From sequence record OV754623: 64,000 nt of DNA. One strand, written 5' to 3'. The stretch comes from Escherichia phage UGJNEcP1. Shown here in pieces: positions 101-36,962 of this stretch; the first letter of the stretch is position 1; every line of letters starts with the position of its first letter. The translations under genes were made by a program, and so were the position numbers. Below the pieces are notes generated by a model, which was not told the DNA's origin, ran no database searches, and was given only the letters and a program-made list of their open reading frames with translations.

Positions 101-766
101 ATGGCCGATTTAAAAGCTGGTAGTACAACTGGCGGTGCTGTTATATGGCATCAAGGTAATTTCCCTTTAATGCCGGCAGGTGATGACGTCCTGTATAAAA
201 CGTTTAAACTCTATTCAGAATATAATAAGCCACAAGCGGCTGATAACGATTTCGTTTCTAAAGCTAATGGTGGTACGTATGCCGCTCGAGTAACATTTAA
301 TAATGGTGTGCAAGTACCTTATGCCGTAAATAACACAAATCAAAGTGGTATTTATCCTGGCAATGGCGATGCTGCTACTTTTGATACAGCAAATATTGAT
401 ATTGTTTCATGGTATGGCATTGGTTTTAAATCATCACAAGGATCTGCAGGTAGAACTGTTGTTGTTAACACTCGTACTGGTGATATCAGCACTAAAGGTG
501 GTATTTATGCAACTGGTCCTGTCCGTTCTAACGCTACTGCTCCTATAGCAGCGAATGACCTTACTAGAAAGGACTATGTTGACGGACGAATAAATATTGT
601 TACGGATAACGCAAATTCCCGTGTATTGCGTAAAGGCGATACCATGACTGGTACTTTAACAGCACCAAACTTTTTCTCACAGAATCCGGCGTCTGAGGCT
701 AATCATGTTCCTCGTTTCGACCAGATTGTAATTAAAGATTCTGTTCAAGATTTCGGCTATTATTAA
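101..766 (+). CDS. 36: Long tail fibre hinge/connector protein gp36
   Basis: 221 aa, same length as T4 gp36, directly upstream of gp37; Gly/Thr/Asn-rich fibre-like composition; strong RBS. Confidence 0.75.
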
Positions 767-774
767 GAGGACTT

Positions 775-3700
775 ATGGCTACATTAAAACAGATACAATT
801 TAAAAGAAGCAAAGTGGCAGGAGTTAATCCTACTGCAGCACAATTAGCCGAAGGCGAATTAGCGATAAACTTAAAAGATCGAACTCTTTTTACTAAAGAT
901 GACCTCGGTAATATTATTAGCCTAGGCTTTGCTAAGGGTGGGGATATTAACGGTAATGTAACTCAAACTGGCGATTATTTACAAAACGGCACGTATAATC
1001 TCAATGGAAATCAGTTTGTTTATGCAGGAAAATACATTGAATTTTTACCTAAAACCACTGGAAATGGCGCTTGGGCTAACCAACATTCGAATAAAGCCCC
1101 TATCTTTACAGATTTAAGTTCAACTACTTCTGTTTCAGAATACCATCCACTGATTAAACAACGCTATAAAGATGGAACTTTTTCTGCTGGTACATTAGTA
1201 AACGAAGGTAGTTTTAAATTCCATTATATTGATGAAACCGGGACTTCAAAATACTGGACTTTTAATCGAAACGGTAATTTTCAAGTTGATTCCGGAAGTT
1301 TATTAGTATCTAATGGATATTTAGTTACTCAAAGTAATATTGAAACTAAAGCTGGTTCTTTAATTGGTCCTAAAGTTATTACCAAAAATATCAATGTGAG
1401 CACTAAATCTTGGGACACTAATATTGATACTGCATATGATTTAGTTTCATTACCGACTTGGCAGTATACTCCAACCGAAACAGATTTGGATACTAATGGT
1501 ATAAACTACCTTCGTAAATTCCGCGGACATGTTTCTTCTGCTATTTTCCATGAAGTTGCTGATGCTCGTTCAGGTAAACCACAGAATATTTCGTATTGGA
1601 CAGGACGTAATGCTGAAGTTTATCAATGGTCTTATACCACAGATGGGCGTATGTCTGTTGCTAATTCGATAGGTATAGGTCTTGCTGATGTTGGTGACCA
1701 AGGACGTTATCCATTGGTTTCGTTTGGTAAAGGTATTGCAATTGGTGACAATGATACTGGTATTAAATGGGTTCGTGACGGGGTTATCGATTTAGTTGCG
1801 AATGGTATTTCTGCCGGCACTATTCTTAATAACGGTATTAACAGTACTAAAAAATTGATGGTTGGTTATAGTCGAGATTCTGGTTCTACTTGGGATTACC
1901 CAAATAACAACCAAGCAATGTTTACTGCGCGTACCGATGTTGATGGTAATAATAACGGTGACGGTCAGACTCATATCGGTTATAGTAGCAATGCCAAGAT
2001 GTATCACTATTTCCGTGGCACTGGTCGTATGTCCGTTAGTATGGGTGATGGGCTTCTTGTTGAGCCTGGCATTTTAGATATTAAAACCAGTTCAAATAGG
2101 GTTGCTATTAGAGCAGATGGTACATTTGACTCAACCCAACGTATTTCAATGCGTACTGGGTTATTTTTATCAGGTGATGACAATACCAATGCTTTGACAT
2201 TTAAAGCGCCTACAGGCGTTGACGGGACAAAAACCATTAACTGGGATGCAGGTACTCGTAATGGTCAGAATAAAAATACTGTAACCATTAAAGCATGGGG
2301 TAACTCATTTAACGCTGAAAAGGGTAATAGAGAAACTGTATTTGAAGTATCAGATTCACAAGGTTATTATTTTTATGCTCAACGTACCAACCCGGCTTCT
2401 GGTGAAACAGTAGGTCCTGTTAACTTTAAATTTAACGGAACTGTCGAAACAGGCCATATCATAGGCCTTGGTAATATAAGTGCCTCCGGTACAGGTTCTT
2501 TTGGTGGCAATGTTACCATGACTAATGGCCTGTTTGTCCAAGGTGGTTCTTCTATTACAGGCCAAGTTAAAATTGGTGGAACAGCTGATGCATTAAGAAT
2601 TTGGAATGCTGAATACGGTGCTATTTTCCGTCGTTCTGAAGATAAGCTTTATATTATTCCAACCCCGCAGAATGCTGGCGAATCAGGTGGTATTTCTAAT
2701 TTACGTCCGTTCTATATTACATTAAGTACCGGTAAAGTTTCTATGGACCATGATGTAGATATCGGTGGTGGAATATTTAAAGTAGAAACTAGTGGAACAA
2801 CAGCAGGGAAACGTATTACAGTTAATGCGGCGTCAGATGCTATTAGAATAAATGCCCCAACGCAAGAGTCTTCTAACTTTATTCAAGGACGTAAAGCAGA
2901 TGTTACAAAATGGTATTTAGGTATTGGCGATGGCGGCAACGTCGTTCGTATGCATAGTTACACCTATTCACATGGTATTGCACTGAATTCTGATACTGTC
3001 GATATTACTAAACCATTAAAAGTTGGTAATGCTCAATTCGGTACTGATGGTAATATCACTGGTGGTTCTGGTAATTTTGCTAACTTGAATACCACAATAA
3101 ATAACCTTAAGACAGATATTGTCTCAAGTTATCCAATTGGTGCTCCGATTCCTTGGCCTACTGATACACCTCCTGAAGGTTATGCCATAATGGAAGGCCA
3201 GACGTTTGATACTGACTTGTATCCTAAGTTAGCTGCGGTGTATCCTTCCGGCGCTCTGCCTGATATGCGCGGTCAAACTATCAAGGGTAAACCATCCGGG
3301 CGTGCTGTATTAAGTACAGAAGCAGACGGTGTTAAGTCACATAGCCATAGTGCAAGTGCGTCAAGCACGGATTTAGGTACTAAGACCACTTCTAGTTTTG
3401 ATTACGGTAGCAAAACGACTTCAAGCTTTGATTATGGTACTAAAACCAGTAATACTACTGGTAACCATAACCATACAGTGAGTGGTAATACTAGTGCCGC
3501 TGGTAATCACCAGCACTCACAGACAGGCCCAAGAGGACCTAGTAACCAACCGACCGGGATATTTCCTAATGGGGCTACTCTAATTAGTGGGACTCAGGTT
3601 ATTAGTTTTGGCCTAAGCAACGGTATCGTGCCTGGTACAAGCCAATATATTGCAAAGTCGTCAACAGAAGGTAACCATACCCATAGTTGGTCAGGAACTA

Positions 3701-3888
3701 CTAGCGCTACTGGTAACCATGCCCATACGGTAGGTATTGGTGCTCATACCCATTCGGTAGGTATTGGTGCTCATTCTCATACTGTTGCAATTGGTTCCCA
3801 TGGGCATACAATAACTGTAAATGCCACAGGAAATACAGAAAACACTGTTAAAAACGTTGCTTTTAACTATATCGTTCGTTTAGCATAA
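775..3888 (+). CDS. 37: Long tail fibre distal subunit gp37
   Basis: 1037 aa; C-terminal His-rich GNHxH / G(A/S)HxH repeats as in T4 gp37 needle domain; RBS aagagga. Confidence 0.9.
3403..3450 (+). repeat. In-frame tandem direct repeat inside gene 37 ([10 protein letters not shown] x2)
   Basis: Two near-identical ~24-27 nt units encoding [23 protein letters not shown]. Confidence 0.7.
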
Positions 3889-3921
3889 GGAGAAGGGACT
3901 TCGGTCCCTTTTTATAATATG
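3886..3921 (+). promoter_or_regulatory. Gene 38 translation initiation region: stable hairpin between SD and AUG
   Basis: SD aaggag at 3886-3891, hairpin gggacttcggtccc at 3895-3908, ATG at 3919; the hairpin would bring the SD to normal spacing, as described for T4 gene 38. Confidence 0.55.
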
Positions 3922-4470
3922 AAACTCTATCACTATTATTTTGACACTAAAGAATTTTACAAAGAAGAAAATTATAAACCATTAAAAGGCGTAGGATTTC
4001 CGGCTCATTCGACACCAAAAAAACCTTTAGACCCTAAAGAAGGCTATGCTGTTATATTTGACGAACGCGAGCAAGAATGGGTATATGTTGAAGACCATCG
4101 TGGAAAAACAGTATGGACTTATGATAAGCAAAAAATTGTTATTGACACTCCAGGTGCTCTTCAAAATGTTACTACAGAAGAACCTGGTGAATTTGACATT
4201 TGGACCGACGACGGGTGGAAGGAAGATGAAGCATATAAACGCGTAGTTCAACGTGATAAGAAAATTCATGAACTCTATAAATTATTCAGTGTTTTAAGTT
4301 CTCTTATTGACGCAGAGGTTGCTAATAGAGAAGAAAAACGAAAATTTAAAGAGCTCAAAAAATTCTTTGCCCTTTTAGAAAAACATGAACATCTTGGCGG
4401 CGAATTCCCTAAATTCCCTGACCTTGAAAAAAAATCTATTGTCAAAGCGATTATAAATATCTTTAAGTAA
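3919..4470 (+). CDS. 38: Tail fibre assembly chaperone gp38 (T4 type)
   Basis: 183 aa; N-terminus MKLYHYYFDTKEFYKEENYKP and C-terminus FFALLEKHEHLGGEFP match remembered T4 gp38. Confidence 0.85.
   Translation: MKLYHYYFDTKEFYKEENYKPLKGVGFPAHSTPKKPLDPKEGYAVIFDEREQEWVYVEDHRGKTVWTYDKQKIVIDTPGALQNVTTEEPGEFDIWTDDGWKEDEAYKRVVQRDKKIHELYKLFSVLSSLIDAEVANREEKRKFKELKKFFALLEKHEHLGGEFPKFPDLEKKSIVKAIINIFK
4452..4459 (+). promoter_or_regulatory. T4-type late promoter (TATAAATA) for holin t
   Basis: Exact TATAAATA about 20 nt upstream of the t start, followed by RBS aaggagg. Confidence 0.55.
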
Positions 4471-4479
4471 GGAGGTATT

Positions 4480-5142
4480 ATGGCAACACCAAAAGTGTCA
4501 TTTTCGCCTAGTGATATTCTATTTGGGTTGCTAGATCGTATTTTCAAAGATAACGCTACTGGAAAGGTTTTAATGTCCCGAGTAGCGGTAATTATTCTTT
4601 TGTTCCTAATGGCACTAATATGGTACAAAGGAAGTATTTTGCTGGATTATTATGTAAGAGCTAAGTATGATACTTATACTGAAATAATCCAAAAAGAACG
4701 AGCTTTACGTTTTGAATCTGCGGCTCTAGAACAACTGCAAATAGTTCATATCTCATCTGGTGCAGATTTTAGTGCTGTGTATTCTTTCAGACCTAAAAAC
4801 TTAAATTATTTTGTCGACCTTATAGCTTATGAAGGCAAACTACCTAGCACAATTTCTGAAAAGTCGCTTGGTGGATTCCCGGTGGATAAAACGGCTAATG
4901 AATATATAATTCATTTAAGTGGCCGTCATTTCTCATCTAAATCAGAATTTGCATTTTTGCCTACAAAATCTAAGACTGCCGAACTTTCTTATATGTATAG
5001 TTGTCCATACTTTAATTTGGATAACATCTATGCTGGAACTGTGGCGATGTATTGGTATAAGGGGAATAATAATATACTTGAGGAAGATCGCTTAGCGGCT
5101 ATATGCAACCAAGCGATCCGAATACTAGGAAGGGCTAAATAA
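4480..5142 (+). CDS. t: Holin T
   Basis: 220 aa; N-terminal SFSPSDILFG..DNATGKVL..SRVAV plus a single TM and large periplasmic domain match T4 holin. Confidence 0.9.
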   Translation: MATPKVSFSPSDILFGLLDRIFKDNATGKVLMSRVAVIILLFLMALIWYKGSILLDYYVRAKYDTYTEIIQKERALRFESAALEQLQIVHISSGADFSAVYSFRPKNLNYFVDLIAYEGKLPSTISEKSLGGFPVDKTANEYIIHLSGRHFSSKSEFAFLPTKSKTAELSYMYSCPYFNLDNIYAGTVAMYWYKGNNNILEEDRLAAICNQAIRILGRAK

Positions 5143-5415
5143 TTAGTTGTTAGAATACATCGCTAAATGACGATAAATATTTTCAAAACCTTCATTGAAT
5201 TCACTAATCAGTGTTTTCTTTTCTTCGGCAGTTAAATTTGTAATTAGTTTTCTAAAAGAATTCTGATTTAGCTGCCGACCATCTTTTTTAATTCCAATCT
5301 CATTCAAGAATCCGATGAAACTTGCTCGGTCTTCAACAATATCTTCCCTAGAGAATTTAATCAAAATAGAAGCAATAGTAATAATTTCACGTACAATTTC
5401 AATATCTTTATTCAT
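5143..5415 (-). CDS. asiA: Anti-sigma70 factor AsiA
   Basis: 90 aa; MNK.I..VREIIT.ASILIKFSREDIVE..A.F..FLNEIG matches T4 AsiA. Confidence 0.9.
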   Translation of the reverse strand: MNKDIEIVREIITIASILIKFSREDIVEDRASFIGFLNEIGIKKDGRQLNQNSFRKLITNLTAEEKKTLISEFNEGFENIYRHLAMYSNN

Positions 5416-5461
5416 AACGTTTTATTCATTCTACTTAGTTGATATGGATATAGTACCATTA

Positions 5462-5623
5462 TCAGTGTTGATTGTAAACAGCTTTTTCTACGCTTTTAAC
5501 GTAATTGACGTAGTCTTCCTGTTCGTACGAGTGTAAGGCTAAGAACAGAGCTAATAGTTCATTATAGACTAAAGCCTCACGCTCGCGTTCGGCCTCTACT
5601 ACGTTCTGAAGATTATGGCTCAT
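5462..5623 (-). CDS. Hypothetical small protein (about 53 aa)
   Basis: ORF from an internal ATG (MSHNLQ...) overlapping the stop of the upstream gene; no recognisable family. Confidence 0.3.
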   Translation of the reverse strand: MSHNLQNVVEAEREREALVYNELLALFLALHSYEQEDYVNYVKSVEKAVYNQH

Positions 5624-5912
5624 ACCGTTCCTTATAACTATCAATATAGTCCTGTATGTCGAAGAATGACATTTCATATTCTAGGGCATTAAGAGCCCGT
5701 TCTTCAGTATAGTCAGAACCAAAGACGATAGTGATTTCACCAGGCTTCATGTGATTGAAATCAACACTAAAAGGAATACGAGAACATACTTCGTCTGCCA
5801 TATCTGCAACAACACTACGATACACTTCTCGGTTAACCTGATAAAGCTCTGCAAGTTCTTCGCATCGAATAACAAGTTCAGTGGCAGGATTTTCTTTGAT
5901 TTTAGTAAGCAT
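5613..5912 (-). CDS. Acidic small protein at the arn position (possible Arn-like anti-restriction protein)
   Basis: About 100 aa from MLTKIKENPATEL; acidic; sits between asiA and motA where T4 has arn; identity from position only. Confidence 0.35.
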   Translation of the reverse strand: MLTKIKENPATELVIRCEELAELYQVNREVYRSVVADMADEVCSRIPFSVDFNHMKPGEITIVFGSDYTEERALNALEYEMSFFDIQDYIDSYKERYEP

Positions 5913-5995
5913 AGTCTTTACCCTTATGTTTTTGTTTGCGTTTAGATTGAAGTTCTGATTTCTTCTTGTCCTTATGGACAGAAGCCTTATTGAAA

Positions 5996-6214
5996 TCATG
6001 TTTTGCTACAAGATTGTTCATAATGATTTATAACCTCATTTAAGCATTTATCGGTAAAAGAAAACTTTTTAGCCACAGAACATTCGATAATGTGCTCTTT
6101 CAAATCTTTAGAGTCGGTATATCCCATCTCAGTAATAAAGTGGCGAATTAAAGCTTTATTCTTATCATTGACAGAATTAAAATAATCTGCTTTAGAATCA
6201 ATTATTCTCATCAT
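5996..6214 (-). CDS. Hypothetical early protein
   Basis: 72-aa ORF in the packed minus-strand array between asiA and motA. Confidence 0.4.
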   Translation of the reverse strand: MMRIIDSKADYFNSVNDKNKALIRHFITEMGYTDSKDLKEHIIECSVAKKFSFTDKCLNEVINHYEQSCSKT

Positions 6215-6479
6215 CTAATTTCCTTAATTGATATTGCAACGAGCTAATAATTTCTTCATTCATTTTAATATACATGTCACACAAGAAAGATTTTAACCCG
6301 TCACGAATAATTGCTAACTTATCACCTTTACATAAATTGACCAAATAAGGATGATCTAAAGCATCCCAACCAGGCTGATTAGCATACATACCATAGTTTT
6401 CTTCCATCATATGATTAAGACGTTTGATATCTTGGATACGTGTTTCAATAGCATCTTTCTGGAGTTGTTTAATATTCAT
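6198..6479 (-). CDS. Hypothetical early protein
   Basis: 93-aa ORF, stop overlaps the next start. Confidence 0.45.
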   Translation of the reverse strand: MNIKQLQKDAIETRIQDIKRLNHMMEENYGMYANQPGWDALDHPYLVNLCKGDKLAIIRDGLKSFLCDMYIKMNEEIISSLQYQLRKLDDENN

Positions 6480-7961: not shown

Positions 7962-7992
7962 CTATAATACCATGTTTGAAGCAAAAGTAAAC
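7962..7992 (-). promoter_or_regulatory. Sigma70-type early promoter upstream of motA
   Basis: Minus strand reads GTTTAC, 17-nt spacer, TATTATAG; the spacer contains TGCTTCA, a MotA-box-like motif. Confidence 0.6.
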
Positions 7993-27851: not shown

Positions 27852-28079
27852 TTAACAGCAAACAACTTCTTCAGTATCGTAAGCATTAATTGTTCCTCGA
27901 ACAAAACGAACACCACCATTATCCCAGCGGATTTCGGCATTAAATTTGACGTCTTCACCATCCATCATGAATGAGTGTACGACTACATCATCGTAATATC
28001 CAAGACCGTATTTCAACGAAACTTCTTGAGCAATCAAAGCACCTAATGTGTTATTAGGTTTAATCCAACGATTTAACAT
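27852..28079 (-). CDS. Hypothetical protein (about 75 aa)
   Basis: From the internal MLNRWIKPNNT with RBS agaggag; the track ORF begins at a TTG further upstream. Confidence 0.45.
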   Translation of the reverse strand: MLNRWIKPNNTLGALIAQEVSLKYGLGYYDDVVVHSFMMDGEDVKFNAEIRWDNGGVRFVRGTINAYDTEEVVCC

Positions 28080-28149
28080 ATTGTTCTCCTCTTGAGTAAG
28101 TAAGAATATCTTAACACAGTTTTTAGCGGTTGTAAACTGTAGAAACAAA

Positions 28150-28180
28150 AAAAAAAAGGAATCCCGAAGGATTCCTAAAT
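28150..28180 (-). terminator. Rho-independent terminator downstream of soc
   Basis: Minus-strand hairpin ggaatccttcgggattcc followed by an 11-nt T-run. Confidence 0.7.
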
Positions 28181-28183
28181 TAT

Positions 28184-28420
28184 TTAACCACTTACTGGTG
28201 TAGGGGTAAACATTGCAGCGTTCTTAGTTTTCCAGTCAGCTGCATCAGAAACTACAGTAGAATAAGCTGCCTTTTCAGAAGGAAAGGTCTGATAATGAGA
28301 ATCTGCAATCCGATGTTCGTTTGAATAAATCTCAAACGGTACAGAAACTTCCATACCTTTAACTTCTTTGCCTTCACCAGCCGGACGTGTAAAGGTTTTG
28401 ATATTAACGTAACCACCCAT
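28184..28420 (-). CDS. soc: Small outer capsid protein Soc
   Basis: 78 aa; GYVNIKTF, AHYQTFPSEKAAYSTV-like stretch as in T4 Soc; late promoter upstream and strong terminator downstream. Confidence 0.85.
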   Translation of the reverse strand: MGGYVNIKTFTRPAGEGKEVKGMEVSVPFEIYSNEHRIADSHYQTFPSEKAAYSTVVSDAADWKTKNAAMFTPTPVSG

Positions 28421-28452
28421 AATTAACTCCTTTGTTGTTTAATTACAGGTGT

Positions 28453-28460
28453 ATTTATAA
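28453..28460 (-). promoter_or_regulatory. T4-type late promoter (TATAAATA) for soc
   Basis: Minus-strand TATAAATA about 30 nt upstream of the soc ATG. Confidence 0.55.
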
Positions 28461-28465
28461 CTTAA

Positions 28466-29002
28466 TCAGTAACCATTATCCTGACGTTCAAAGTTGTGTT
28501 GGTTTTTCAAGTAGTAAAGTTTAAAGATTTCTTCTGCAGTGAGTCCAAGACCCTGGAACATATTCAGAACAAAGTGGAGGATATCAATCATTTCAAATTT
28601 AATTTCAAGCTGGTCTTCAGGAGACAGTTCATCGATACGACGATTTCGATATTCAGCATGTTGTGCTTTCCAAGGCTTCCATACAGAGCTAGCGGCTTTT
28701 TCACCATTGCTCATACCACCGAGTGAAGTCAGCAGTTCACGGAATTCATCATCAATATAATCTTTCTGATTACGCAGCCAATCAACAACATCACCAGCAG
28801 TGGCCAATTCATCAGGATGTTTGTTATGTTCAGGCTTGTCATTTGCCAGACGAACCTGTAAAGATTTCTGCATATCAAGCATTACCTGCAGTGGGTCTTT
28901 ATCTTCGTGAATCAGAGCATTAAAATAAGCTTCTTCCGCTTTATCAACACCAGAAATAAGTTGTGAACATTCGTTAAAGTGTGCCATTATTTTTCCTTTC
29001 AA
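28466..29002 (-). CDS. 56: dCTP pyrophosphatase gp56 (MazG-like)
   Basis: 178 aa; all-alpha NTP-pyrophosphatase-like sequence at the T4 gene 56 position between soc and 61; start may be the internal MAHF. Confidence 0.7.
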   Translation of the reverse strand: MKGKIMAHFNECSQLISGVDKAEEAYFNALIHEDKDPLQVMLDMQKSLQVRLANDKPEHNKHPDELATAGDVVDWLRNQKDYIDDEFRELLTSLGGMSNGEKAASSVWKPWKAQHAEYRNRRIDELSPEDQLEIKFEMIDILHFVLNMFQGLGLTAEEIFKLYYLKNQHNFERQDNGY

Positions 29003-29075
29003 TTCAGTATAAGAGAGTTAATTTTAACATTAATTTTATAAAGCGTAATAAATAATAGGTAACTAAGGAGATATT

Positions 29076-29273
29076 ATGTTTAAACTTCCATCGTTAATCA
29101 ACGCTATTAAAGGCAATAAAAAGAAAACTGCTATCGCTGCAATAGTTGTAGGTGGCATTATTTCATGGAACTTCGGGATTGCACCATTGTTAGTTGCCCA
29201 TGGTATTATAGTTCCTTCTGTTCCATTGGATACTGTAGTTGATTTGGCCTTTGCTATTATAGGGCTTGTTTAA
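29076..29273 (+). CDS. Small hydrophobic membrane protein on the plus strand
   Basis: 65 aa; strong RBS taaggag 7 nt before the ATG; two hydrophobic segments; convergent with the gene 61 stop. Confidence 0.5.
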   Translation: MFKLPSLINAIKGNKKKTAIAAIVVGGIISWNFGIAPLLVAHGIIVPSVPLDTVVDLAFAIIGLV

Positions 29274-30292
29274 ATCTTCGAATAACGAGATAATCTCATT
29301 TTAGCATGCAACCCACTTGAAATATTCTGTTTCATATATTCTAAAATTTCTTGTGGTGTTGCATTTTCTTTCATTACCATATCATTCACATCCTTTGATC
29401 TCCACGGAGCTCGGTCCCAGAACATGACACGTTCGCCTGCATCAACTAATCGCTTCATGCGAGCTATAGTATCCGGATGCCTAGGTTCATTATCCATTAC
29501 CCATACCCGACGTTCTTTAAATGGTACCACATCTAAATCTATTGAGCCGCCTGTAATAGCGATTGCATTGGGTATGAATAAACTATCAATAGGGCCTTCC
29601 ATTACCCAGACGTCTCCTTCCTTAACACGTTCAACACCATAAATTTTTGTTGCAGACTCAAACGCTTTAATAGTGATATATTTCTGAGGAGCATCTTTAC
29701 GAAGTGCACGTCCTTGGAATGACTCGGCCTTACCATCTTTATTAAAAATAGGAATCACTAAACGTGGTTCGGGAATCTCTTTCTTGTACGTACCAGGTTG
29801 AATCTTGTTGACCAATTTAGGCCATTCTAATGTGAACCATAATCTGTTCCATGATTCTTTAGGAATACACCGAGACTTGACATATTTCACAATAGGATGC
29901 TCTTCAGGCAACTTGTCCAGACGAGAACAAGACGGCAAAGAATTTATAGTCTTTTTCTCCGGTTCTGGTTTATGTTCAGGAACCTTTTCAATTTTTGGTT
30001 CCATTCTAGCTTTTTCTTTACGAACTTCCATTAGATATTCGCGATAAAGCTCTTCATCATACTCTTTTAAGTATCCAGAAATTGTATTATGGTATTGACA
30101 GTTATAGCAATGTACATTACCAGGAGTACCGCCATAATACCATCCGCGAGCTTTCATTGCATCTGTCTGGGAGTCGCCACAAACTGGACAACGAAACGTT
30201 AATTTAAATGTGCTTGAATTATTGATTTGTCTAAAACGAGGGAGGTGAGAAAACGCACGATAAGCAAATTCATTATCTATCCATTCAGCCAT
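29270..30292 (-). CDS. 61: DNA primase gp61
   Basis: 340 aa; zinc finger CPVCGDS..HCYNC and long stretches (QGRALRKDAPQKYITI, FWD..PW.SKDVNDM) as in T4 gp61. Confidence 0.9.
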   Translation of the reverse strand: MAEWIDNEFAYRAFSHLPRFRQINNSSTFKLTFRCPVCGDSQTDAMKARGWYYGGTPGNVHCYNCQYHNTISGYLKEYDEELYREYLMEVRKEKARMEPKIEKVPEHKPEPEKKTINSLPSCSRLDKLPEEHPIVKYVKSRCIPKESWNRLWFTLEWPKLVNKIQPGTYKKEIPEPRLVIPIFNKDGKAESFQGRALRKDAPQKYITIKAFESATKIYGVERVKEGDVWVMEGPIDSLFIPNAIAITGGSIDLDVVPFKERRVWVMDNEPRHPDTIARMKRLVDAGERVMFWDRAPWRSKDVNDMVMKENATPQEILEYMKQNISSGLHAKMRLSRYSKI

Positions 30293-30331
30293 AGTATTCT
30301 CCAGAGGCCTTAAATTAATAAGGCCATCATA

Positions 30332-30826
30332 TCACAACTTATTAATATTTACTTTAATTCGCTTTCTTTTCTTGGAAGGAATTTGTTCTGGACCTTTATT
30401 TACGACTGCACCTGAAGTAGTTCCTGATGCAATAGCTTGAGGACTGCCACCTGAATCACCAGCAACCATATCCTCAAATAAAGGGAGTTCTTTAAATATT
30501 TCTTTCTGTTGTTCTTCCGTAATGTTATAGCGTGAAGCTACAGCACTCCAGGCAGACATCATTGAGGCCATTCCATTAAGACCTGGAACAGTGCTCATCA
30601 TTCGCTTCATTGAACGAACTGAAGCATGAAAAGGTGTATAAGCCGCTTTCTCTTCAGGAGTGGAAGGGCGTTTAAGAACACTTCCACGTTCATCGATGAT
30701 TTTGGCTTCATACGCTTTCCATTCGGTAAAAGGTTTTTGCATTAGTCGAATAAACTTATATGCGTAAACAGAATCTATTGCAGTGTTAATAATACCCATA
30801 GGTACCTCCTGAGTATATTTAATCAA
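30332..30826 (-). CDS. Hypothetical protein (164 aa)
   Basis: ORF in the island between 41 and 61; basic C-terminus. Confidence 0.5.
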   Translation of the reverse strand: MIKYTQEVPMGIINTAIDSVYAYKFIRLMQKPFTEWKAYEAKIIDERGSVLKRPSTPEEKAAYTPFHASVRSMKRMMSTVPGLNGMASMMSAWSAVASRYNITEEQQKEIFKELPLFEDMVAGDSGGSPQAIASGTTSGAVVNKGPEQIPSKKRKRIKVNINKL

Positions 30827-31016
30827 TTACAAAGATTGCTTTGTCACCATTTATATCTGTGACTTCATATGTAGTGCCTTCATACTGTGGAATATTCCAA
30901 ATTACACCATCATTAGCTTTTACGCTAATATGGCATTGGTGTTTTGAAACAACTTCATAATCTTCAAAACTTGTAAAAACACTAATTTTAGAACCAGTGC
31001 AAATTGCAGTAGTCAT
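30819..31016 (-). CDS. Hypothetical protein (65 aa)
   Basis: Small ORF overlapping the next gene by 8 nt. Confidence 0.45.
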   Translation of the reverse strand: MTTAICTGSKISVFTSFEDYEVVSKHQCHISVKANDGVIWNIPQYEGTTYEVTDINGDKAIFVID

Positions 31017-31017
31017 T

Positions 31018-31677
31018 TTAACCTCGATTCATAAATGCATTAAATATTTGGTCATCAACAGAAATTTCTAATTCGACTTCAATTGCTTCAGCCTTTTCTT
31101 CAGGCGGTAATTCGTATCCACACACTACAATTTTTTCATCGATATCAAAATATACAGAAGCAATATGATTAATGTTATTTTCAGTTAAGTCCAAATCAAC
31201 ATCAACATCTTTTTGACCTTCACTTAAAGGATAACTAATACGGGTTATTTTATTATCTTTAACAAAGAGTCCGCCAACATACTCTGTACTACGTTTGAAG
31301 TTTACACGTTTCCGAATTGAAAGATATGATGCATCTTTACCGTGAGCTCGGCTCATAGGACATAATGAATAGCTAGAATAAGAGATGTCAAATCCTACAC
31401 CTTCAATATGAGCCAACGTATCATGATTAAACCAATTATAATCATATGCCAAATCCATTATATTGTAATATGTGAAAGGCACAGGATTAACATCATATGT
31501 TGTACCTTTAAAATCCGCCCATGCAACGATTTCGTTATCTTTAACAATTACAAAAATTACACCAATATGGTATCCATTATTATTTTCATTCGGCGTTATA
31601 TTATAACATTGTGCATTAGGAAATTTACCATATTTAAATGGCGCATTTTTGTGCATATAATAAATCATATTATTCAC
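31018..31677 (-). CDS. Hypothetical protein (219 aa)
   Basis: ORF in the island; no family recognised. Confidence 0.5.
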   Translation of the reverse strand: MNNMIYYMHKNAPFKYGKFPNAQCYNITPNENNNGYHIGVIFVIVKDNEIVAWADFKGTTYDVNPVPFTYYNIMDLAYDYNWFNHDTLAHIEGVGFDISYSSYSLCPMSRAHGKDASYLSIRKRVNFKRSTEYVGGLFVKDNKITRISYPLSEGQKDVDVDLDLTENNINHIASVYFDIDEKIVVCGYELPPEEKAEAIEVELEISVDDQIFNAFMNRG

Positions 31678-31963
31678 CTGTGATTTCGGTTACGATATCT
31701 TTGTTATCGAAATTAGGGTCACAATACAAAACATAGTTGTACTGCATGATACCGCCAGACTTAAGTTGTTCAACAACTTTATTAACCATATTAGGACGGT
31801 CTCGTTTAGTGATGTTCATGATATCAGAGAAGATTTGTTGTTCAACATCTTCTTGATTTGCAGTCATTGACCACTCACAGAGGTCTTTATCATAACCTGC
31901 CGTAACTGGAGCCGGTGCACATGATACTGCAAGTAAGATTGCTGCCAATGATAACTTTTTCAT
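31670..31963 (-). CDS. Secreted small protein with signal peptide (Sp/spackle-like)
   Basis: 97 aa; signal peptide MKKLSLAAILLAVSCAPAPVTAG, two Cys; length and character of T4 Sp; identity uncertain. Confidence 0.45.
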   Translation of the reverse strand: MKKLSLAAILLAVSCAPAPVTAGYDKDLCEWSMTANQEDVEQQIFSDIMNITKRDRPNMVNKVVEQLKSGGIMQYNYVLYCDPNFDNKDIVTEITGE

Positions 31964-31992
31964 TTTAACTCCTTAGTTGATTTGATAGGACT

Positions 31993-32022
31993 ACTATACT
32001 ATAGTCCATCTATAATGTAAAC
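31993..32022 (-). promoter_or_regulatory. Sigma70-type early promoter with inverted repeat
   Basis: GTTTAC, 18 nt, TATAGT; arms GGACTA / TAGTCC. Confidence 0.55.
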
Positions 32023-32026
32023 AAGT

Positions 32027-32275
32027 TTATTCTTTTTCGCGAATAATAATTACTTGTTGAGGCTGCTGAGCAGATTTCTTTTCGGCAACGATAGACCAAA
32101 TTAAAGTTCCAATCCAACCAACCATCGTCCAGTTAAAGAGTAAAGATACAAAGAAGATTGCTGCTGTGCTTTTTGTGCCACGAATAAGTGCGATTACCCA
32201 AGGCAACATGTAAATGATGATTGAACCAATACCTGCGATTAAAACTGCTACTGAACTAGCCACGAATAATTCCAT
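32027..32275 (-). CDS. Small inner-membrane protein (Imm / superinfection-immunity-like)
   Basis: 82 aa; two TM segments with P..IA..RG.K....NW..VGWIGTLIWS pattern typical of the Imm family. Confidence 0.5.
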   Translation of the reverse strand: MELFVASSVAVLIAGIGSIIIYMLPWVIALIRGTKSTAAIFFVSLLFNWTMVGWIGTLIWSIVAEKKSAQQPQQVIIIREKE

Positions 32276-32303
32276 GATAATTTCCTCTTGATTTGTTATG
32301 TTT

Positions 32304-32333
32304 ATAGTATCTTATTTTAACTTTGGTGTAAAC
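32304..32333 (-). promoter_or_regulatory. Sigma70-type early promoter
   Basis: GTTTAC, 18 nt, TACTAT. Confidence 0.5.
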
Positions 32334-32336
32334 CAA

Positions 32337-32705
32337 TTAATTAAATTTGTTTAAACGTTCAATACACTGGACGTAGTTATTCGCGATTTGTTTCTGGGTA
32401 GGCTCTTTACCAGTTGTTTCAACATAGCGAATGAATGCGATTTCAGTAGCCTGTAAGCAATGTTCTTTAACGCGTTGTTCCTTTGACAATGCTACAGTAT
32501 CAGAGTCACGATAACGTTGAGCATGAGCGTCAGCTTGAATCATTCGATTACCTACAGTAACCGGGTCTTCCACTTCAACTTTAGGTTGTTCATATTGTTT
32601 AACATTCGGATTGTAAATCAGTTGGCCAACGTTATTAGGGATAAAGCCATGAGCACCACATCCGGTTAATCCGAATACCATTGCTAAAGCGATTAATTTT
32701 TTCAT
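32337..32705 (-). CDS. Putative lipoprotein
   Basis: 122 aa; signal peptide plus lipobox LTGC (MKKLIALAMVFGLTGC). Confidence 0.6.
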   Translation of the reverse strand: MKKLIALAMVFGLTGCGAHGFIPNNVGQLIYNPNVKQYEQPKVEVEDPVTVGNRMIQADAHAQRYRDSDTVALSKEQRVKEHCLQATEIAFIRYVETTGKEPTQKQIANNYVQCIERLNKFN

Positions 32706-32733
32706 TTCAATTTCCTCTGTAGTTGATAGAAAG

Positions 32734-32763
32734 ATAGTAACACAGTATGTGGTGCTTGTAAAC
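32734..32763 (-). promoter_or_regulatory. Sigma70-type early promoter
   Basis: GTTTAC, 18 nt, TACTAT. Confidence 0.5.
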
Positions 32764-32765
32764 AG

Positions 32766-32978
32766 CTATTTTAAACTTTTGCGAAATTTGCGTTTTTCTT
32801 GACGAATCTGTCGTTTAGTCGGACGTACAGCAAATTTAACGAAGTCCACTTTGCCGTGTGGAAACTTTTCAGATGCTTCACAATCCATCATTAGTTCCCA
32901 TCCTTCCAAAATAAGAGCTTTCCATTGGGTAGTTGATGCAAATTCGTATGTTGATGGTTTAAACACAGTTGAATACAT
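32766..32978 (-). CDS. Small protein with basic RPTKRQ tail
   Basis: About 70 aa from MYSTVFKP; the C-terminal VRPTKRQIRQEKRK tail is shared with two small ORFs near gene 49. Confidence 0.45.
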   Translation of the reverse strand: MYSTVFKPSTYEFASTTQWKALILEGWELMMDCEASEKFPHGKVDFVKFAVRPTKRQIRQEKRKFRKSLK

Positions 32979-32979
32979 A

Positions 32980-33171
32980 TTAACCTCTGAAGTCTGCTTC
33001 AAAAACTTTCTCATCATTAACAAATGCTTTAACTAATGCATTGTTCACTTCAGCAAGTTGTACCGCAACCCACTCGATTTCTTCGCGATCACCTGATAAC
33101 ATGATATCTTTAGTGAACATCTCACCGCTTTTAAACCAACCGATAAAAGTAACTTTAGTTAATTTGCTCAT
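32980..33171 (-). CDS. Hypothetical small protein (about 63 aa)
   Basis: From MSKLTKVTFIGW; ATGA overlap with the upstream ART-like gene. Confidence 0.45.
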   Translation of the reverse strand: MSKLTKVTFIGWFKSGEMFTKDIMLSGDREEIEWVAVQLAEVNNALVKAFVNDEKVFEADFRG

Positions 33172-33485
33172 ATTTCCTCGCAAAATGCCCATTCAGCGTG
33201 ATAAACTGTAGCGCCTTTAGTATCATTCATTTGAACTACATCTACCGGAGAAATTACTCGATAGAGACGTGGTTCACCTCCATAAGAGCGTGCTGCTCGT
33301 CCTGCATAAATCTTTGCTAAACCGATATCTTCGGTAAAGAATACACGATCCAAGTTTTTCTTACGTCCTGTTTCAGACAGAACTCCTGTTTCTTCAGGAG
33401 GACAAAGCATGTTTTCGATGTTAGCTGAACTACTTGAACCGTGATAAAAAATCTTAAATTCTGCTTTACAATCGATGGTTTTCAT
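33168..33485 (-). CDS. Small protein with an ADP-ribosyltransferase-like H-Y-E signature (tentative)
   Basis: 105 aa; FYHGSSSS (H-G-S), AKIYAGRAARSYGG (Tyr-rich loop) and YHAEWAF (catalytic Glu context) in the order seen in PARP/diphtheria-toxin ARTs; short for a full ART domain. Confidence 0.35.
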   Translation of the reverse strand: MKTIDCKAEFKIFYHGSSSSANIENMLCPPEETGVLSETGRKKNLDRVFFTEDIGLAKIYAGRAARSYGGEPRLYRVISPVDVVQMNDTKGATVYHAEWAFCEEI

Positions 33486-33511
33486 TTTGTTCTCCAGTAG
33501 TTGATAGGTCT

Positions 33512-33540
33512 ATAATAACACAACTACTGGAGAAGTAAAC
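33512..33540 (-). promoter_or_regulatory. Sigma70-type early promoter with 10-bp inverted repeat
   Basis: GTTTAC, 17 nt, TATTAT; arms CCAGTAGTTG / CAACTACTGG flank -10. Confidence 0.55.
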
Positions 33541-33915
33541 TTAAAAACGTAATTTAGATATATCTGCGTTGATTTCGTTTTGGTTTGCGTCGTATGCAAT
33601 TAAACGAACCGCTTTAGATGGGTCATTCAATGCATAGAAATGATGGAACATTGCTCGAACGATATCACCATTTACGAGTTCTACCTGGATAGGAGAACCT
33701 TTTTCGAGTTGGAAATGTTCATAAGCTTTGATGGTTCGTAGATAATCAAGTTTTTGATTTCCAGCTCCAACTATTTGTACGATACGTTTGCCCATGTTTT
33801 CCATACGAGATACAATAGTTTTAGGAGCAAGAATAACGTAGGTTGCCAGCGGAGAAACTACTTCAACAGTTGTGTTTTCGGTGATTGCAGTAAAAATTGC
33901 TTGAGACATATTCAT
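33541..33915 (-). CDS. Hypothetical protein (124 aa)
   Basis: First gene of the island downstream of gene 41. Confidence 0.5.
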   Translation of the reverse strand: MNMSQAIFTAITENTTVEVVSPLATYVILAPKTIVSRMENMGKRIVQIVGAGNQKLDYLRTIKAYEHFQLEKGSPIQVELVNGDIVRAMFHHFYALNDPSKAVRLIAYDANQNEINADISKLRF

Positions 33916-33944
33916 AATGTTTTCCTCTTGGTTTGTGTAAGTGC

Positions 33945-33974
33945 ATCATATCATGCCTAGAGGAAGATGTAAAC
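33945..33974 (-). promoter_or_regulatory. Sigma70-type early promoter
   Basis: GTTTAC, 18 nt, TATGAT; arms TCCTCT / AGAGGA around -10. Confidence 0.5.
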
Positions 33975-33977
33975 CCC

Positions 33978-34000
33978 GAAAGGAGACCGAAGTCTCCTTT
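33978..34000 (+). terminator. Hairpin with T-run on the plus strand (possible antisense or bidirectional terminator) just after gene 41
   Basis: aggagaccgaagtctcct followed by TTTTTATT on the plus strand; weaker T-tract on the minus strand. Confidence 0.4.
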
Positions 34001-34003
34001 TTA

Positions 34004-35446
34004 TTAAAATTTTAACTCATTGGCTAAGCTATCTAGGTCAGCACGTGTTGCTTTGGCTTTACCTACGCGTTCCGTACGATTCACCTCTGCCTGACGCATC
34101 TGAGCACCTGCGTTTTCATTTACTGTGTTAGGTGTGTTCATGCCTTCTTGCTCAATCTCAATCCATTTCTGGTTGCCTTTACGTACACCCATCAGGAATT
34201 TATTCCACTTATTCTTATCACCATAACGTGATTTGATTTGTTTGATAAGTTGTTGTTCGGCTTGTGCAAGTTCTTCGGTTTCAATTACAGCCAACATGAA
34301 ATCTGCCGTTGCTGGTAAACCTGCTGATTCTGCGATATCACTCATGTTCATGTCTGAAGCATCCCATGCTGCACGTCCTACTTGAGCTGCAGTCCATAGA
34401 ACTGTTTCAGATTCTACTGCTAATGCACGAAGTTCTTCTGCGATAGCTTTAACTAATGTGTAGCTATTTTCAGTGTAAACTCTGATACGACAAGACCCAC
34501 AAATACCTAAGTAATCAACCATGATTACAGATGGCACAAAGTTCTTCTTAAGTTTTAACTCATTAAGCAATGCACGGAATGTATTAGCATTAGCTCCACC
34601 AGTAGGATACTGTTTAACTACTAAACGTCCTAATGTGGATTTTGAACGCCATTTTTCCATCTTGGCTTTATATTCAGCATAAGATACGTTACCATCATCG
34701 ATATCATCGAGTGATACGTCAAGCATGTTTGCATCTATACGCTTAGCACAAACTTCTTCAGCCATTTCCATGGAAATATAAAGAACATTATGTCCTGTTT
34801 GAAGATAATCTGCAGCAAGTGAACAAAGGCCTAAAGATTTACCAACGTTAACACCTGCCATTAAAACGTTTAGTGTACCAGTTTCAGCACCGCCTTTGGT
34901 GATTTTATTCAAAATGTTTAATTTGAACGGGACCTTACGTGCTTTGTTCAGATAAGAAAGCCAGCGTGCTTCGTAGTCTTCCATCCAGTCATGTCCAACA
35001 TAACTATCGAACGAAATTGAAAGTGCTTGACGCATAATATCAGGAATAGCTCCTACATCAGGCATTTTCTTGTTACGTTGTTCTGGAGGTAGTTCAGCAT
35101 TAGACTGAATCTCAATGATTTTGGACGTAGCATTATACATCGCTTTTTGCTGGACATATTTCTCAGTTTCTTTAACCAACCATTCGTGGTCTTCAGGAGT
35201 ATCAGCCAATTTTTCAATTAGGTCTGAAGTTCCTTTATATTCGGCTTCAGTTAAAGAACTGTTATCTAAAGCCACCTTTAATGCATTGATAGATGGCATT
35301 GCATTATATTCGTTAACGTGGCTCTTTATAATTTTAAAGACATTTTTTGCCGGTCCACGCTCAAAGTAATCAGAATCCATATAAGGCCAGACCTTAGAAA
35401 AATAAGCCTGGTCATATACTAGATGAGACAAAATAATTTCTACCAC
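34004..35446 (-). CDS. 41: Replicative DNA helicase gp41 (DnaB-like)
   Basis: 480 aa; Walker A GVNVGKS, DnaB-family motifs and T4 gp41 length. Confidence 0.9.
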   Translation of the reverse strand: MVEIILSHLVYDQAYFSKVWPYMDSDYFERGPAKNVFKIIKSHVNEYNAMPSINALKVALDNSSLTEAEYKGTSDLIEKLADTPEDHEWLVKETEKYVQQKAMYNATSKIIEIQSNAELPPEQRNKKMPDVGAIPDIMRQALSISFDSYVGHDWMEDYEARWLSYLNKARKVPFKLNILNKITKGGAETGTLNVLMAGVNVGKSLGLCSLAADYLQTGHNVLYISMEMAEEVCAKRIDANMLDVSLDDIDDGNVSYAEYKAKMEKWRSKSTLGRLVVKQYPTGGANANTFRALLNELKLKKNFVPSVIMVDYLGICGSCRIRVYTENSYTLVKAIAEELRALAVESETVLWTAAQVGRAAWDASDMNMSDIAESAGLPATADFMLAVIETEELAQAEQQLIKQIKSRYGDKNKWNKFLMGVRKGNQKWIEIEQEGMNTPNTVNENAGAQMRQAEVNRTERVGKAKATRADLDSLANELKF

Positions 35447-35455
35447 GATAACTCC

Positions 35456-35818
35456 TTAAAAGAATTTAAATTTTTTCTTGGCCCGTTCATTAAAAGCTTG
35501 TTGTACTTGCATTGTAACACATTTTTCAACATGTGGTGCAAGTTCTGCTTTTCTGTCCTGGTCAAGAACTGCAAAGTCCATTACGATTTTACCATCAACC
35601 CAGTCTAGTTTTGTAATATAGACTATATGATGGGAACCATCTTCAAGTGTAATCAGAATCTCTTGAATGACATTTTCCATTGCTGAACGGATAATTTTAA
35701 GAGATTCATTAAACACTCGTTCTTTGCGAATGTCTTCCCCTTCCGAAGAAGGGGATTCATCAACGATTTCTAGATTTAAATCATCGAGATTATTCATCGA
35801 AATCTTCCATTTCGTCAA
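35456..35818 (-). CDS. gp40-like protein (head vertex assembly chaperone position)
   Basis: 120-aa ORF between uvsX and 41 as T4 gene 40; N-terminus overlaps the uvsX 3' end. Confidence 0.45.
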   Translation of the reverse strand: MTKWKISMNNLDDLNLEIVDESPSSEGEDIRKERVFNESLKIIRSAMENVIQEILITLEDGSHHIVYITKLDWVDGKIVMDFAVLDQDRKAELAPHVEKCVTMQVQQAFNERAKKKFKFF

Positions 35819-36962
35819 GGTCGTTTTCTATATCTGCTGCAGACGGAGCATCAGAAGTTTTAACCGGAACTTTAGTTGTTGCTTTGCAATTAATAAGGTC
35901 ATTAACAGCGTCATCAACTTCTTTAATAGAAGAGATAGCACCTAGTTTATATTTAGTTTCAATTGCATCTCGGAAAGGTTTGTGTTTAAACAAAGGTCCC
36001 CAGAATTCTACACAATCAGTAGCTTTAGCACGCCATGATTTTTCTTCACGAATCATTTCACCTGTTTCTTCGTCAAGGAATTCGCGAGCATACCAACCGG
36101 CTTTAGGCTTAACTACAAAACCAATTTCAGTTGCCATTTCTAACAAGCCACTGAATGGGTCAATACCGCCATCAAAATTAACCGTGATTGGGAAAGTAGA
36201 TTTTTCTTTAACGGTGCGAGATTTTTCTGCTTTCAACGTGAAGTCATAACCGGTCAATTCTGTACCTTCTTTAACCTGACGTTTAGAGATAAAAAATACC
36301 GTGTTGGCAGAATAAAGAATACCTGTACCACCGCCCATAATCTCTTTAGGATACAATCCGCCAATTTCCATTGCGGTATGGTTGATTGCAACACATGGAA
36401 TATCTTTAATAGTCAGATAAGGAGTCACAATACGGAACAGAGATTTAAGTGCCTTAGCACGAGACATATCACCTACAACTTTCTCGTTCAACGCATCTTC
36501 GGTTTCTTTCTTAGATGCAGTATTACCGATTGAATCGATAAAGATAATAACTTTATCACCGCGTTCAATCGCGTCAAGCTGATTAGTCATATCAACTTTA
36601 AGTTGTTCGACTGACTGAATTGGTGTATGAACTACACGGTCTAAATCAACACCCATTGAACGAAAATAAGATTCTGAAGCACCAAATTCTGAATCATAGA
36701 ACAAACAAATTGCATCTTTATATTTCTTCATATATGCTGCAACCATAGTTAGTCCAAACAACGTTTTAAAGTGTTTAGAAGGAGCAGCAAAAATAGTCAA
36801 GCCTGATTGCAATCCTGCATTCAGAGCACCACCTAATGCAATATTCAACATCGGAATACGAGTAGGGACTTCATCACGATTATTAAACAGCTTAGACTTA
36901 GTCAAGTCTGCAGTCATTTTAGAAGTAGAAGCTTTAATCAGACGAGATTTTAAATCAGACAT
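35790..36962 (-). CDS. uvsX: UvsX recombinase (RecA-like)
   Basis: 390 aa; near-identical stretches to remembered T4 UvsX (MSDLKSRLIKASTSK, KETEDALNEKVV, NGWYAREFLDEETGEMIREEKSWRAK). Confidence 0.95.
   Translation of the reverse strand: MSDLKSRLIKASTSKMTADLTKSKLFNNRDEVPTRIPMLNIALGGALNAGLQSGLTIFAAPSKHFKTLFGLTMVAAYMKKYKDAICLFYDSEFGASESYFRSMGVDLDRVVHTPIQSVEQLKVDMTNQLDAIERGDKVIIFIDSIGNTASKKETEDALNEKVVGDMSRAKALKSLFRIVTPYLTIKDIPCVAINHTAMEIGGLYPKEIMGGGTGILYSANTVFFISKRQVKEGTELTGYDFTLKAEKSRTVKEKSTFPITVNFDGGIDPFSGLLEMATEIGFVVKPKAGWYAREFLDEETGEMIREEKSWRAKATDCVEFWGPLFKHKPFRDAIETKYKLGAISSIKEVDDAVNDLINCKATTKVPVKTSDAPSAADIENDLDEMEDFDE

Follow-up and report, generated by a model that had tools for sequence, protein, structure and literature searches.

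A ten-gene block between the helicase and primase genes of Escherichia phage UGJNEcP1 and its counterparts in T4-like phages

In phage T4 (NC_000866), the genes for the replicative helicase (41) and the primase (61) enclose a group of small genes, the order along transcription being 41, dmd, 61.4, sp, 61.2, 61.1, 61, dam, 56. The synteny of this region in T4, T2, T6 and RB69 was drawn by Srikant et al. 2022, who called it a possible "anti-TA island" (TA, toxin–antitoxin) and described its other genes as "attractive anti-toxin candidates" (PMC9391042). Here, we analyse the corresponding interval in a 64,000-nucleotide (nt) stretch of Escherichia phage UGJNEcP1 (sequence record OV754623; hereafter the window, with position 1 as its first letter), in which ten open reading frames (ORFs), all on the minus strand, fill positions 30332–33915 between gene 41 (34004–35446) and gene 61 (29270–30292), as an initial annotation of the same DNA had described. 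We conclude with high confidence that this block is the known RB69/Mosigvirus version of the variable ('hyperplastic') counter-defence and exclusion region that T-even phages carry between genes 41 and 61; the block, the order of its genes and the functions of most of them have already been published.

The block and its counterparts in RB69, T4 and other genera

PHROG families could be assigned to all ten block ORFs, and six of the ten match a Pfam family above the curated cut-off (Dmd, DUF7279/TifA, DUF5481/Imm.1, Imm, Spackle and AdfA); a scan of all ten block proteins against NCBIfam gave nothing meaningful. The ORFs also match the RB69 annotation one to one, and they are real, conserved genes. 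Plus-strand ORFs within the block were considered and set aside, being short, overlapping the conserved minus-strand genes and unannotated in relatives.

From gene 61 to gene 41 (29270–35446), the DNA is 100% identical to Escherichia phage UGJNEcP2 and has 98.2% nucleotide identity to RB69, and this whole segment is present at 95–99% identity in about 150 phage records, essentially of the genus Mosigvirus; by these identities, the source phage is itself a Mosigvirus (RB69-like). Its RB69 counterpart (AY303349, 16,255–22,429) has the same genes in the same order and on the same strand, encoding proteins that are 97–100% identical to those of the source phage. The two phages differ in that a 1-nt deletion splits 61.1 of RB69 into ORF032c and 61.1, where the source phage has a single intact ORF of 155 amino acids, and in that their AdfA proteins differ at three residues, R164H among them. 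On the upstream side, the 480-amino-acid helicase encoded by gene 41 (34004–35446, minus strand; gp41 in the RB69 annotation) is 85% identical to T4 gp41, and on the downstream side, the 340-amino-acid primase encoded by gene 61 (29270–30292, minus strand) is 74% identical to T4 gp61.

The T4 interval has the same flanks and the same orientation, and in it dmd, tifA (61.4), sp, adfA (61.2) and 61.1 follow one another in the same relative order; the proteins shared by the two phages are 55–66% identical, and both phages have the dmd–tifA operon behind an early promoter. Every feature that we take to mark the T-even 41–61 region, namely the flanking genes, the strand, and dmd–tifA behind an early promoter followed by sp, adfA and 61.1, was found in the source phage. 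The initial annotation had assumed that 41 and 61 are adjacent in T4 and that the sp block lies after 61, which is incorrect, as T4 has dmd-61.4-sp-61.2-61.1 between them. What distinguishes T4 is a shorter interval, with five genes compared to ten, that has no ORF041c, ORF040c or ORF033c; the position of imm.1–imm, which lies between genes 43 and 42 in T4 and beside sp in the source phage, where each of the two genes has its own promoter; and the state of 61.1, which is reduced in T4 to its C-terminal 54 amino acids, compared to 155 in the source phage.

Other genera fill the interval with other sets of genes. The order in Dhakavirus IME281 is 41, an ORF040c-like gene, dmd, two small ORFs (one of them TifA-like), sp, three ORFs, a short 61.1 and 61; in Kanagawavirus KLB31, a Klebsiella phage, it is 41, an ORF040c-like gene, five small ORFs and 61; and in Acinetobacter phage Acj61, an ORF040c-like gene, two ORFs, sp and a long 61.1 (159 amino acids) precede 61. 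The ORF040c homologue of Aeromonas phage 44RR2.8t is located elsewhere, near hoc, and T2 is without adfA (PMC11257639). Because the sets of small genes differ between T4, Dhakavirus, Kanagawavirus and Acj61, the 41–61 interval is a variable region in these phages. The initial annotation had singled out, as the finding that would speak against it, a gene order shared by all close relatives with a known function for every gene; this is largely the case, as the order is indeed universal in close relatives and six of the ten genes can be placed in named families, the other four being uncharacterised.

Two side observations concern these relatives. The IME281 interval contains two DUF7279 (TifA-like) paralogues (5164–5460 and 6249–6470), as well as a 122-amino-acid ORF that weakly matches only the last 15 residues of AdfA. 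In KLB31, a helicase is annotated across the whole small-gene array (2999–6307, with the remark 'unable to determine intron boundaries'), a feature that is more likely an artefact of annotation than a split gene 41.

Early promoters, stem-loops and predicted inhibitors

The T4-type early-promoter pattern GTTTAC-N17/18-TAYDRT matches the window 16 times, always on the minus strand, compared to 0.27 matches expected by chance. A generic sigma-70 scan, unlike this pattern, gave no discrimination, with 29 sites vs 23.6 expected. Five early promoters serve the block, as the initial annotation had counted, though the first lies just outside it. All on the minus strand, P1 (33945–33974, GTTTAC-N18-TATGAT) would drive ORF041c, P2 (33512–33540, GTTTAC-N17-TATTAT) ORF040c-dmd-tifA, P3 (32734–32763, GTTTAC-N18-TACTAT) imm.1, P4 (32304–32333, GTTTAC-N18-TACTAT) imm, and P5 (31993–32022, GTTTAC-N18-TATAGT) sp-adfA-ORF033c-61.1. 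These promoters sit in exactly the five intergenic gaps that measure 55–88 nt, one in each, and the remaining gene junctions of the block measure −4 to 39 nt. Behind P2, ORF040c and dmd are translationally coupled, the stop codon of the former overlapping the start codon of the latter (ATGA, −4 nt); downstream of P5, the junctions are 1, 1, 19 and 39 nt, and this unit probably continues into gene 61. Near-identical promoter pairs at 7964/8285 and 10854/11366 of the window look like duplicated promoter cassettes.

In T4-like phages, promoter(early)–stem-loop (PeSL) cassettes, with a published T4-type consensus of TTTACW-N17-TAYWAT, have been proposed to mediate modular shuffling in hyperplastic regions of the genome (PMC4122927). 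The block resembles these cassettes (Arbiol 2010; Comeau 2014) in that five of its five promoters fit the consensus and lie between small variable ORFs, and differs from them in that a clear upstream terminator-like hairpin is present at P1 only, P2 having an inverted repeat instead. The hairpin, GGAGAC-UUCG-GUCUCC (33979–34000, minus strand), lies 4 nt past the gene 41 stop codon and directly before P1; its RNA fold was calculated at −12.8 kcal/mol (z = −2.9), none of 200 shuffled sequences being equally stable, and together with P1 it may form a composite stem-loop/early-promoter, PeSL-like element. The inverted repeat at P2 is 19 nt long (33485–33503/33521–33539) and brackets the −10 element of this promoter. 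By analogy with PeSL cassettes, we infer that recombination may take place at the promoter/stem-loop sites of the block. An Rfam scan of positions 28000–36000 (E ≤ 1) returned only a chance miRNA match, well below the gathering score, which leaves the block without a known RNA element.

Named families account for six genes of the block, five of them with a known function (Imm.1 being the one without), and one of the other four encodes a protein with an ADP-ribosyltransferase (ART) fold. The initial annotation had suggested functions in superinfection exclusion or host takeover, which stood for the exclusion proteins Imm and Sp, but three of its 'unknowns' are the published counter-defence proteins Dmd, TifA and AdfA. 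Dmd (32980–33171, 63 amino acids) matches PF17587 with 72.5 bits, compared to a cut-off of 27, and is 55% identical to T4 Dmd and 97% to RB69 Dmd. T4 Dmd binds and inhibits RnlA/LsoA (cited in PMC9391042), a function that we carry over to the dmd product of the source phage as a likely antitoxin-like RnlA/LsoA inhibitor. TifA (gene 61.4; 32766–32978, 70 amino acids) matches Pfam DUF7279 with 71.7 bits and is 100% identical to RB69 TifA, an experimentally shown inhibitor of ToxN that is more potent than T4 TifA (PMC9391042). AdfA (anti-DarT factor A, gene 61.2; 31018–31668, 216 amino acids) matches PF23813 over the full length of the profile (211 of 211 positions, 397.9 bits) and is 66% identical to T4 gp61.2. 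Compared to RB69 AdfA, it has the changes V146E, S147G and R164H (RB69 numbering; the histidine is residue 168 in the source phage), and R164H is the escape change through which RB69 AdfA gains the ability to bind DarT1 and neutralise it (PMC11257639). Judged from its predicted protein, the source phage has the His-164 allele, for which activity against DarT1 has been reported.

The three other named genes lie together in the middle of the block. The Imm-like protein with two transmembrane segments proved to be Imm (32027–32275), an 82-amino-acid membrane protein of superinfection immunity that matches PF14373 (Imm_superinfect, 55.8 bits), has two hydrophobic segments and is 64% identical to T4 Imm. 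The signal-peptide protein resembling Sp is Sp (spackle; 31670–31963), a 97-amino-acid periplasmic protein with an N-terminal signal peptide, which matches PF25676 (T4_Spackle, 145 bits) and is 66% identical to T4 Sp; by analogy, Imm and Sp are expected to be superinfection-exclusion proteins. The lipoprotein with an LTGC lipobox could be identified as the Imm.1 homologue (32337–32705, 122 amino acids; Pfam DUF5481, 38.2 bits; 33% identical to T4 Imm.1). Its signal peptide ends in the lipobox MKKLIALAMVFGLTGC (LTGC; pattern L-[AST]-[GA]-C), where T4 Imm.1 has LAGC, and Imm.1 is a predicted lipoprotein.

According to our reading of the block as a T-even counter-defence and exclusion region, five sigma-70-type early promoters would give rise to five transcription units right after infection (ORF041c; ORF040c-dmd-tifA; imm.1; imm; and sp-adfA-ORF033c-61.1, probably on into 61), and the products of the block would be small, mostly stoichiometric inhibitors. 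Dmd would bind and block the RNase toxins RnlA/LsoA and TifA would block the RNase ToxN, AdfA with its His-164 allele would bind the DNA ADP-ribosyltransferase DarT1, and Imm in the inner membrane and Sp in the periplasm would stop the entry of DNA from a secondary phage. Differences between genera would arise as promoter-plus-gene cassettes are gained, lost and moved; by their distribution, ORF040c and the long 61.1 would be old and widespread genes that T4 either lacks or has in truncated form. The gene identities, the gene order, the promoters and the way in which the block compares with T4 and other genera were computed here, and the inhibitor functions come from published experiments with T4 and RB69.

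Nothing speaks against this identification, which nevertheless has limits. The promoter calls are consensus matches, and as such predicted sites rather than mapped starts. T4 AdfA likewise has the histidine, yet deletion of adfA in T4 gives no phenotype (PMC11257639), and activity from His-164 alone is uncertain for this reason. Also, the counter-defence role of the four uncharacterised genes (ORF041c, ORF040c, ORF033c and 61.1) is one that we infer.

ORF040c, a small protein with an ADP-ribosyltransferase fold

The initial annotation had pointed to a possible ART-like protein in the block, and ORF040c (33168–33485, 105 amino acids), a minimal Arr/Tpt1-like protein, does have the ART fold. A single-sequence search of the PDB gave no match, Arr being reached by the family profile only, and the window protein itself falls below Pfam thresholds, with no Arr-ms match at E ≤ 0.1. 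With a profile of 54 family members, the PDB search returned only rifampin ADP-ribosyltransferases (Arr, 2HW2, E = 0.002; ARR-2, E = 0.0095), and 19 of the 54 members match Pfam Arr-ms (PF12120), the best with E = 1.4e-8. Arr and Tpt1 are the closest relatives of ORF040c in both sequence and structure, and some database records already name its homologues "ADP-ribosyl transferase".

Residues H15, G16, T51 and Y60 are invariant in the 54 family sequences, and F49, P29, P30, E38 and R41 are nearly so; H15 aligns with H19 of Arr and F49 with Y49, both residues of the nicotinamide adenine dinucleotide (NAD) site. A family-specific loop, E38-x-x-R41-K-K-N, is also conserved, with E38 as the sole conserved acidic residue. 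A catalytic Glu, Asp or Gln on the C-terminal strand was looked for as well, and no invariant or nearly invariant acidic residue was found past position 70 in the 54 sequences. Compared to Arr (PDB 2HW2, 143 amino acids), ORF040c is 38 residues shorter, with no equivalent of the C-terminal rifampin-binding part and no conserved counterpart of the catalytic Asp84; similarly, the N-terminal RNA lobe of the RNA 2'-phosphotransferase Tpt1/KptA has no equivalent in ORF040c. In sum, the ART fold and the NAD-site residues are present in ORF040c, and one defining catalytic feature is missing.

Of the 609 phage records with ORF040c, 116 are from Klebsiella, 68 from Acinetobacter and 62 from Aeromonas phages, and the protein is 64–70% identical even in T4-like phages of these three hosts. 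Among 1.8 billion representative proteins, it has 184 relatives, in many of which an ORF040c-like domain of about 90 amino acids is embedded in proteins of 1,000–3,900 amino acids. The large relatives that were sampled also carry ART-PolyVal, NUDIX, CHAP, portal and 2H/Acb1-like domains and, judged by these co-occurring domains, are phage polyvalent proteins, a context that fits a role of the ORF040c-like domain in NAD/ADP-ribose-related conflict with the host. In four metagenomic relatives (P0128, P0131, P0137 and P0155), the domain lies beside ART-PolyVal, NUDIX, lambda-type portal or 2H/Acb1-like phosphoesterase domains. A further observation was made in Acj61 (749–4797), where the ORF040c homologue lies three small genes downstream of genes for nicotinamide phosphoribosyltransferase and ribose-phosphate pyrophosphokinase (NAD+ salvage), a proximity that may be coincidental.

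By analogy with these relatives, ORF040c could be an early counter-defence or host-takeover enzyme, a minimal NAD+-using transferase acting on a non-protein target such as an RNA end, a nucleotide signal or a small molecule, and its place beside dmd and tifA would then reflect a shared anti-RNase or anti-Abi (abortive infection) theme. We regard this as a serious possibility with somewhat less than an even chance of being correct. The nearest relatives use non-protein acceptors, a small-molecule hydroxyl in the case of Arr and an RNA 2'-phosphate in the case of Tpt1, and the family conserves H15, F49, T51 and Y60 of the NAD site along with the E38-x-x-R41-K-K-N loop. Identities of 64–70% across phages of E. 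coli, Aeromonas and Acinetobacter point to strong purifying selection, the same domain stands beside ART-PolyVal, NUDIX and 2H/Acb1-like domains in giant polyvalent proteins, and ORF040c shares its operon with two anti-RNase-toxin genes. However, with no conserved acidic catalytic residue, the protein may instead be a non-catalytic NAD/ADP-ribose binder; it is also without the C-terminal substrate-binding part of Arr, and T4 manages without it.

An alternative that we consider unlikely is that ORF040c and Dmd form a phage-borne type II TA pair, in which an ART toxin acting on RNA or protein would be restrained by Dmd, with Dmd also inhibiting RnlA. Iyer et al. 2022 (PMC9503650) predicted that a 'p0068-family ART' and Dmd make up a type II TA pair in phages of Escherichia, Shigella and Salmonella; judged by position, this is very probably ORF040c-dmd. 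In addition to this published prediction, a TA pair would be consistent with the ART fold of ORF040c, with the 4-nt overlap of its stop codon with the dmd start (ATGA) behind one shared early promoter, and with the recurrence of the adjacency of an ORF040c-like gene and dmd in Dhakavirus IME281. The distribution of the two genes argues in the other direction, as they occur largely independently rather than consistently accompanying each other. Dmd is present in 798 records, almost all of them Escherichia, Shigella, Yersinia or Salmonella phages, and about 566 of these Dmd records are of T4 type (<60% identity), most of which appear to be without ORF040c, judging from organism record counts and, for T4 itself, from the 41–61 locus. 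Conversely, no Dmd was found in the Klebsiella, Acinetobacter and Aeromonas phages in which ORF040c is common, and the gene after the ART gene in KLB31, 44RR2.8t and Acj61 encodes no Dmd domain. The lack of a conserved catalytic acidic residue in the ORF040c family also tells against an ART toxin.

gp61.1, the origin of the block and the candidate genes

Gene 61.1 is present at full length in the source phage (30332–30799, 155 amino acids, phrog_2086), and T4-like phages of Salmonella, Citrobacter, Yersinia, Serratia and Acinetobacter commonly have it in this form. T4 and Dhakavirus retain only the C-terminal 53–54 amino acids, the T4 protein (54 amino acids) matching residues 102–141 of the 155-amino-acid protein at 78%. 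The single-base deletion in RB69 (AY303349) changes GAGAAAGCG to GAG-AAGCG (L001 4063–4530, compared to window positions 30332–30799); it reflects either an error of sequencing or a frameshift particular to that strain.

On the evidence of profile and pairwise alignments, the C-terminal third of gp61.1 (residues ~100–147) and the N-terminal region of the major capsid protein gp23 (residues ~55–103) are paralogous, and the whole 54-amino-acid gp61.1 of T4 corresponds to this segment. The gp61.1 family profile matches T4 gp23 in the PDB with E = 5.5e-7 (gp23 residues 49–101), and a comparison of gp61.1 and gp23 with hhalign gave a probability of 96% (E = 4.6e-9). BLASTP aligned gp61.1 to RB69 gp23 with 52% identity over 31 amino acids, and the short T4 gp61.1 aligns to gp23 residues 58–94 with 46% identity. 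We take the aligned gp23 segment to span the prohead-protease cleavage site (LTE/AE) and the first ~30 residues of mature gp23*; profile matches to mature-gp23 chains start at residue 3, in agreement with a segment that covers the mature N-arm. The L-x-E motif is kept in gp61.1 (cleavage-like LFE/D), with E109 nearly invariant in the family, and in an AlphaFold2 model of gp61.1, with a pLDDT (predicted local distance difference test) score of 61, the C-terminal half is disordered. The similarity between gp61.1 and gp23 was not found mentioned in the literature searched.

The capsid protein gp23 is a trigger of the Lit defence. The CmdTAC defence, too, is triggered by gp23 (PMC11618068). We speculate that gp61.1, being made early, might act as a decoy for capsid-sensing defences of the CmdTAC or Lit type, or as a competitor of the prohead protease. 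A co-variation test between gp61.1 and gp23 was uninformative, as the N-arm of gp23 hardly varies even between phages of E. coli and those of Acinetobacter.

The two remaining uncharacterised genes are ORF041c and ORF033c. ORF041c (33541–33915, 124 amino acids), with phrog_10668 as its sole family, occurs in 134 phage records, 132 of which are Mosigvirus at ≥95% identity, and a homologue search gave only 2 clusters among 5.8 billion proteins; it appears to be a Mosigvirus-restricted orphan and a recent addition. ORF033c (30819–31016, 65 amino acids, phrog_3249) is found in 262 phage records from T4-like phages of Escherichia, Shigella and Salmonella. Beyond gene 61, a plus-strand ORF of 65 amino acids (29076–29273), the counterpart of RB69ORF029w, is located between gene 61 and gene 56 and shares 4 nt with the 3' end of gene 61. 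Its product has hydrophobic, probably membrane-spanning segments, and HX01, Dhakavirus IME281 and Klebsiella phage KLB31 likewise have a small opposite-strand ORF annotated there.

The GC content is 0.31–0.41 within the block, compared to 0.35–0.43 in the flanks, and the skew runs through without a break; because this composition is continuous with the flanks, we rejected a foreign island obtained by horizontal acquisition. The broader proposal of a lineage-specific accessory island of ~3.6 kb, inserted between adjacent genes 41 and 61 with the sp block moved from downstream of 61, is highly improbable and refuted by the T4 gene order, for although the block is longer than that of T4 (ten vs five genes) and places imm.1–imm differently, the 41–61 interval of T4 holds five of the same genes, identically ordered and oriented, Dhakavirus, Kanagawavirus and Acj61 carry small-gene arrays in the same interval, and there is no compositional discontinuity.

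With the block being the Mosigvirus version of the T-even region, which is known from the RB69 genome since 2003 and whose counterpart in T4 received the name of anti-TA island in 2022, the value of this analysis is a shortlist. Three genes of the interval, dmd, tifA and adfA, have each proved, singly, to encode inhibitors of host TA defences, and because Dmd, TifA, AdfA, Sp and Imm share the interval, ORF041c, ORF040c, ORF033c, the long 61.1 and Imm.1 are good counter-defence candidates. ORF040c stands out among them as a very small and very conserved ART-fold protein in T4-like phages of many hosts, and gp61.1 as a protein that appears to copy a segment of the capsid protein sensed by several defence systems. 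That at least one of the uncharacterised block genes is a counter-defence factor with a new mechanism is a tentative prospect, with the chances leaning clearly against it, and its best candidates would be ORF040c, as a mini-ART or a Dmd-controlled toxin, and gp61.1, as a copy of the gp23 arm.

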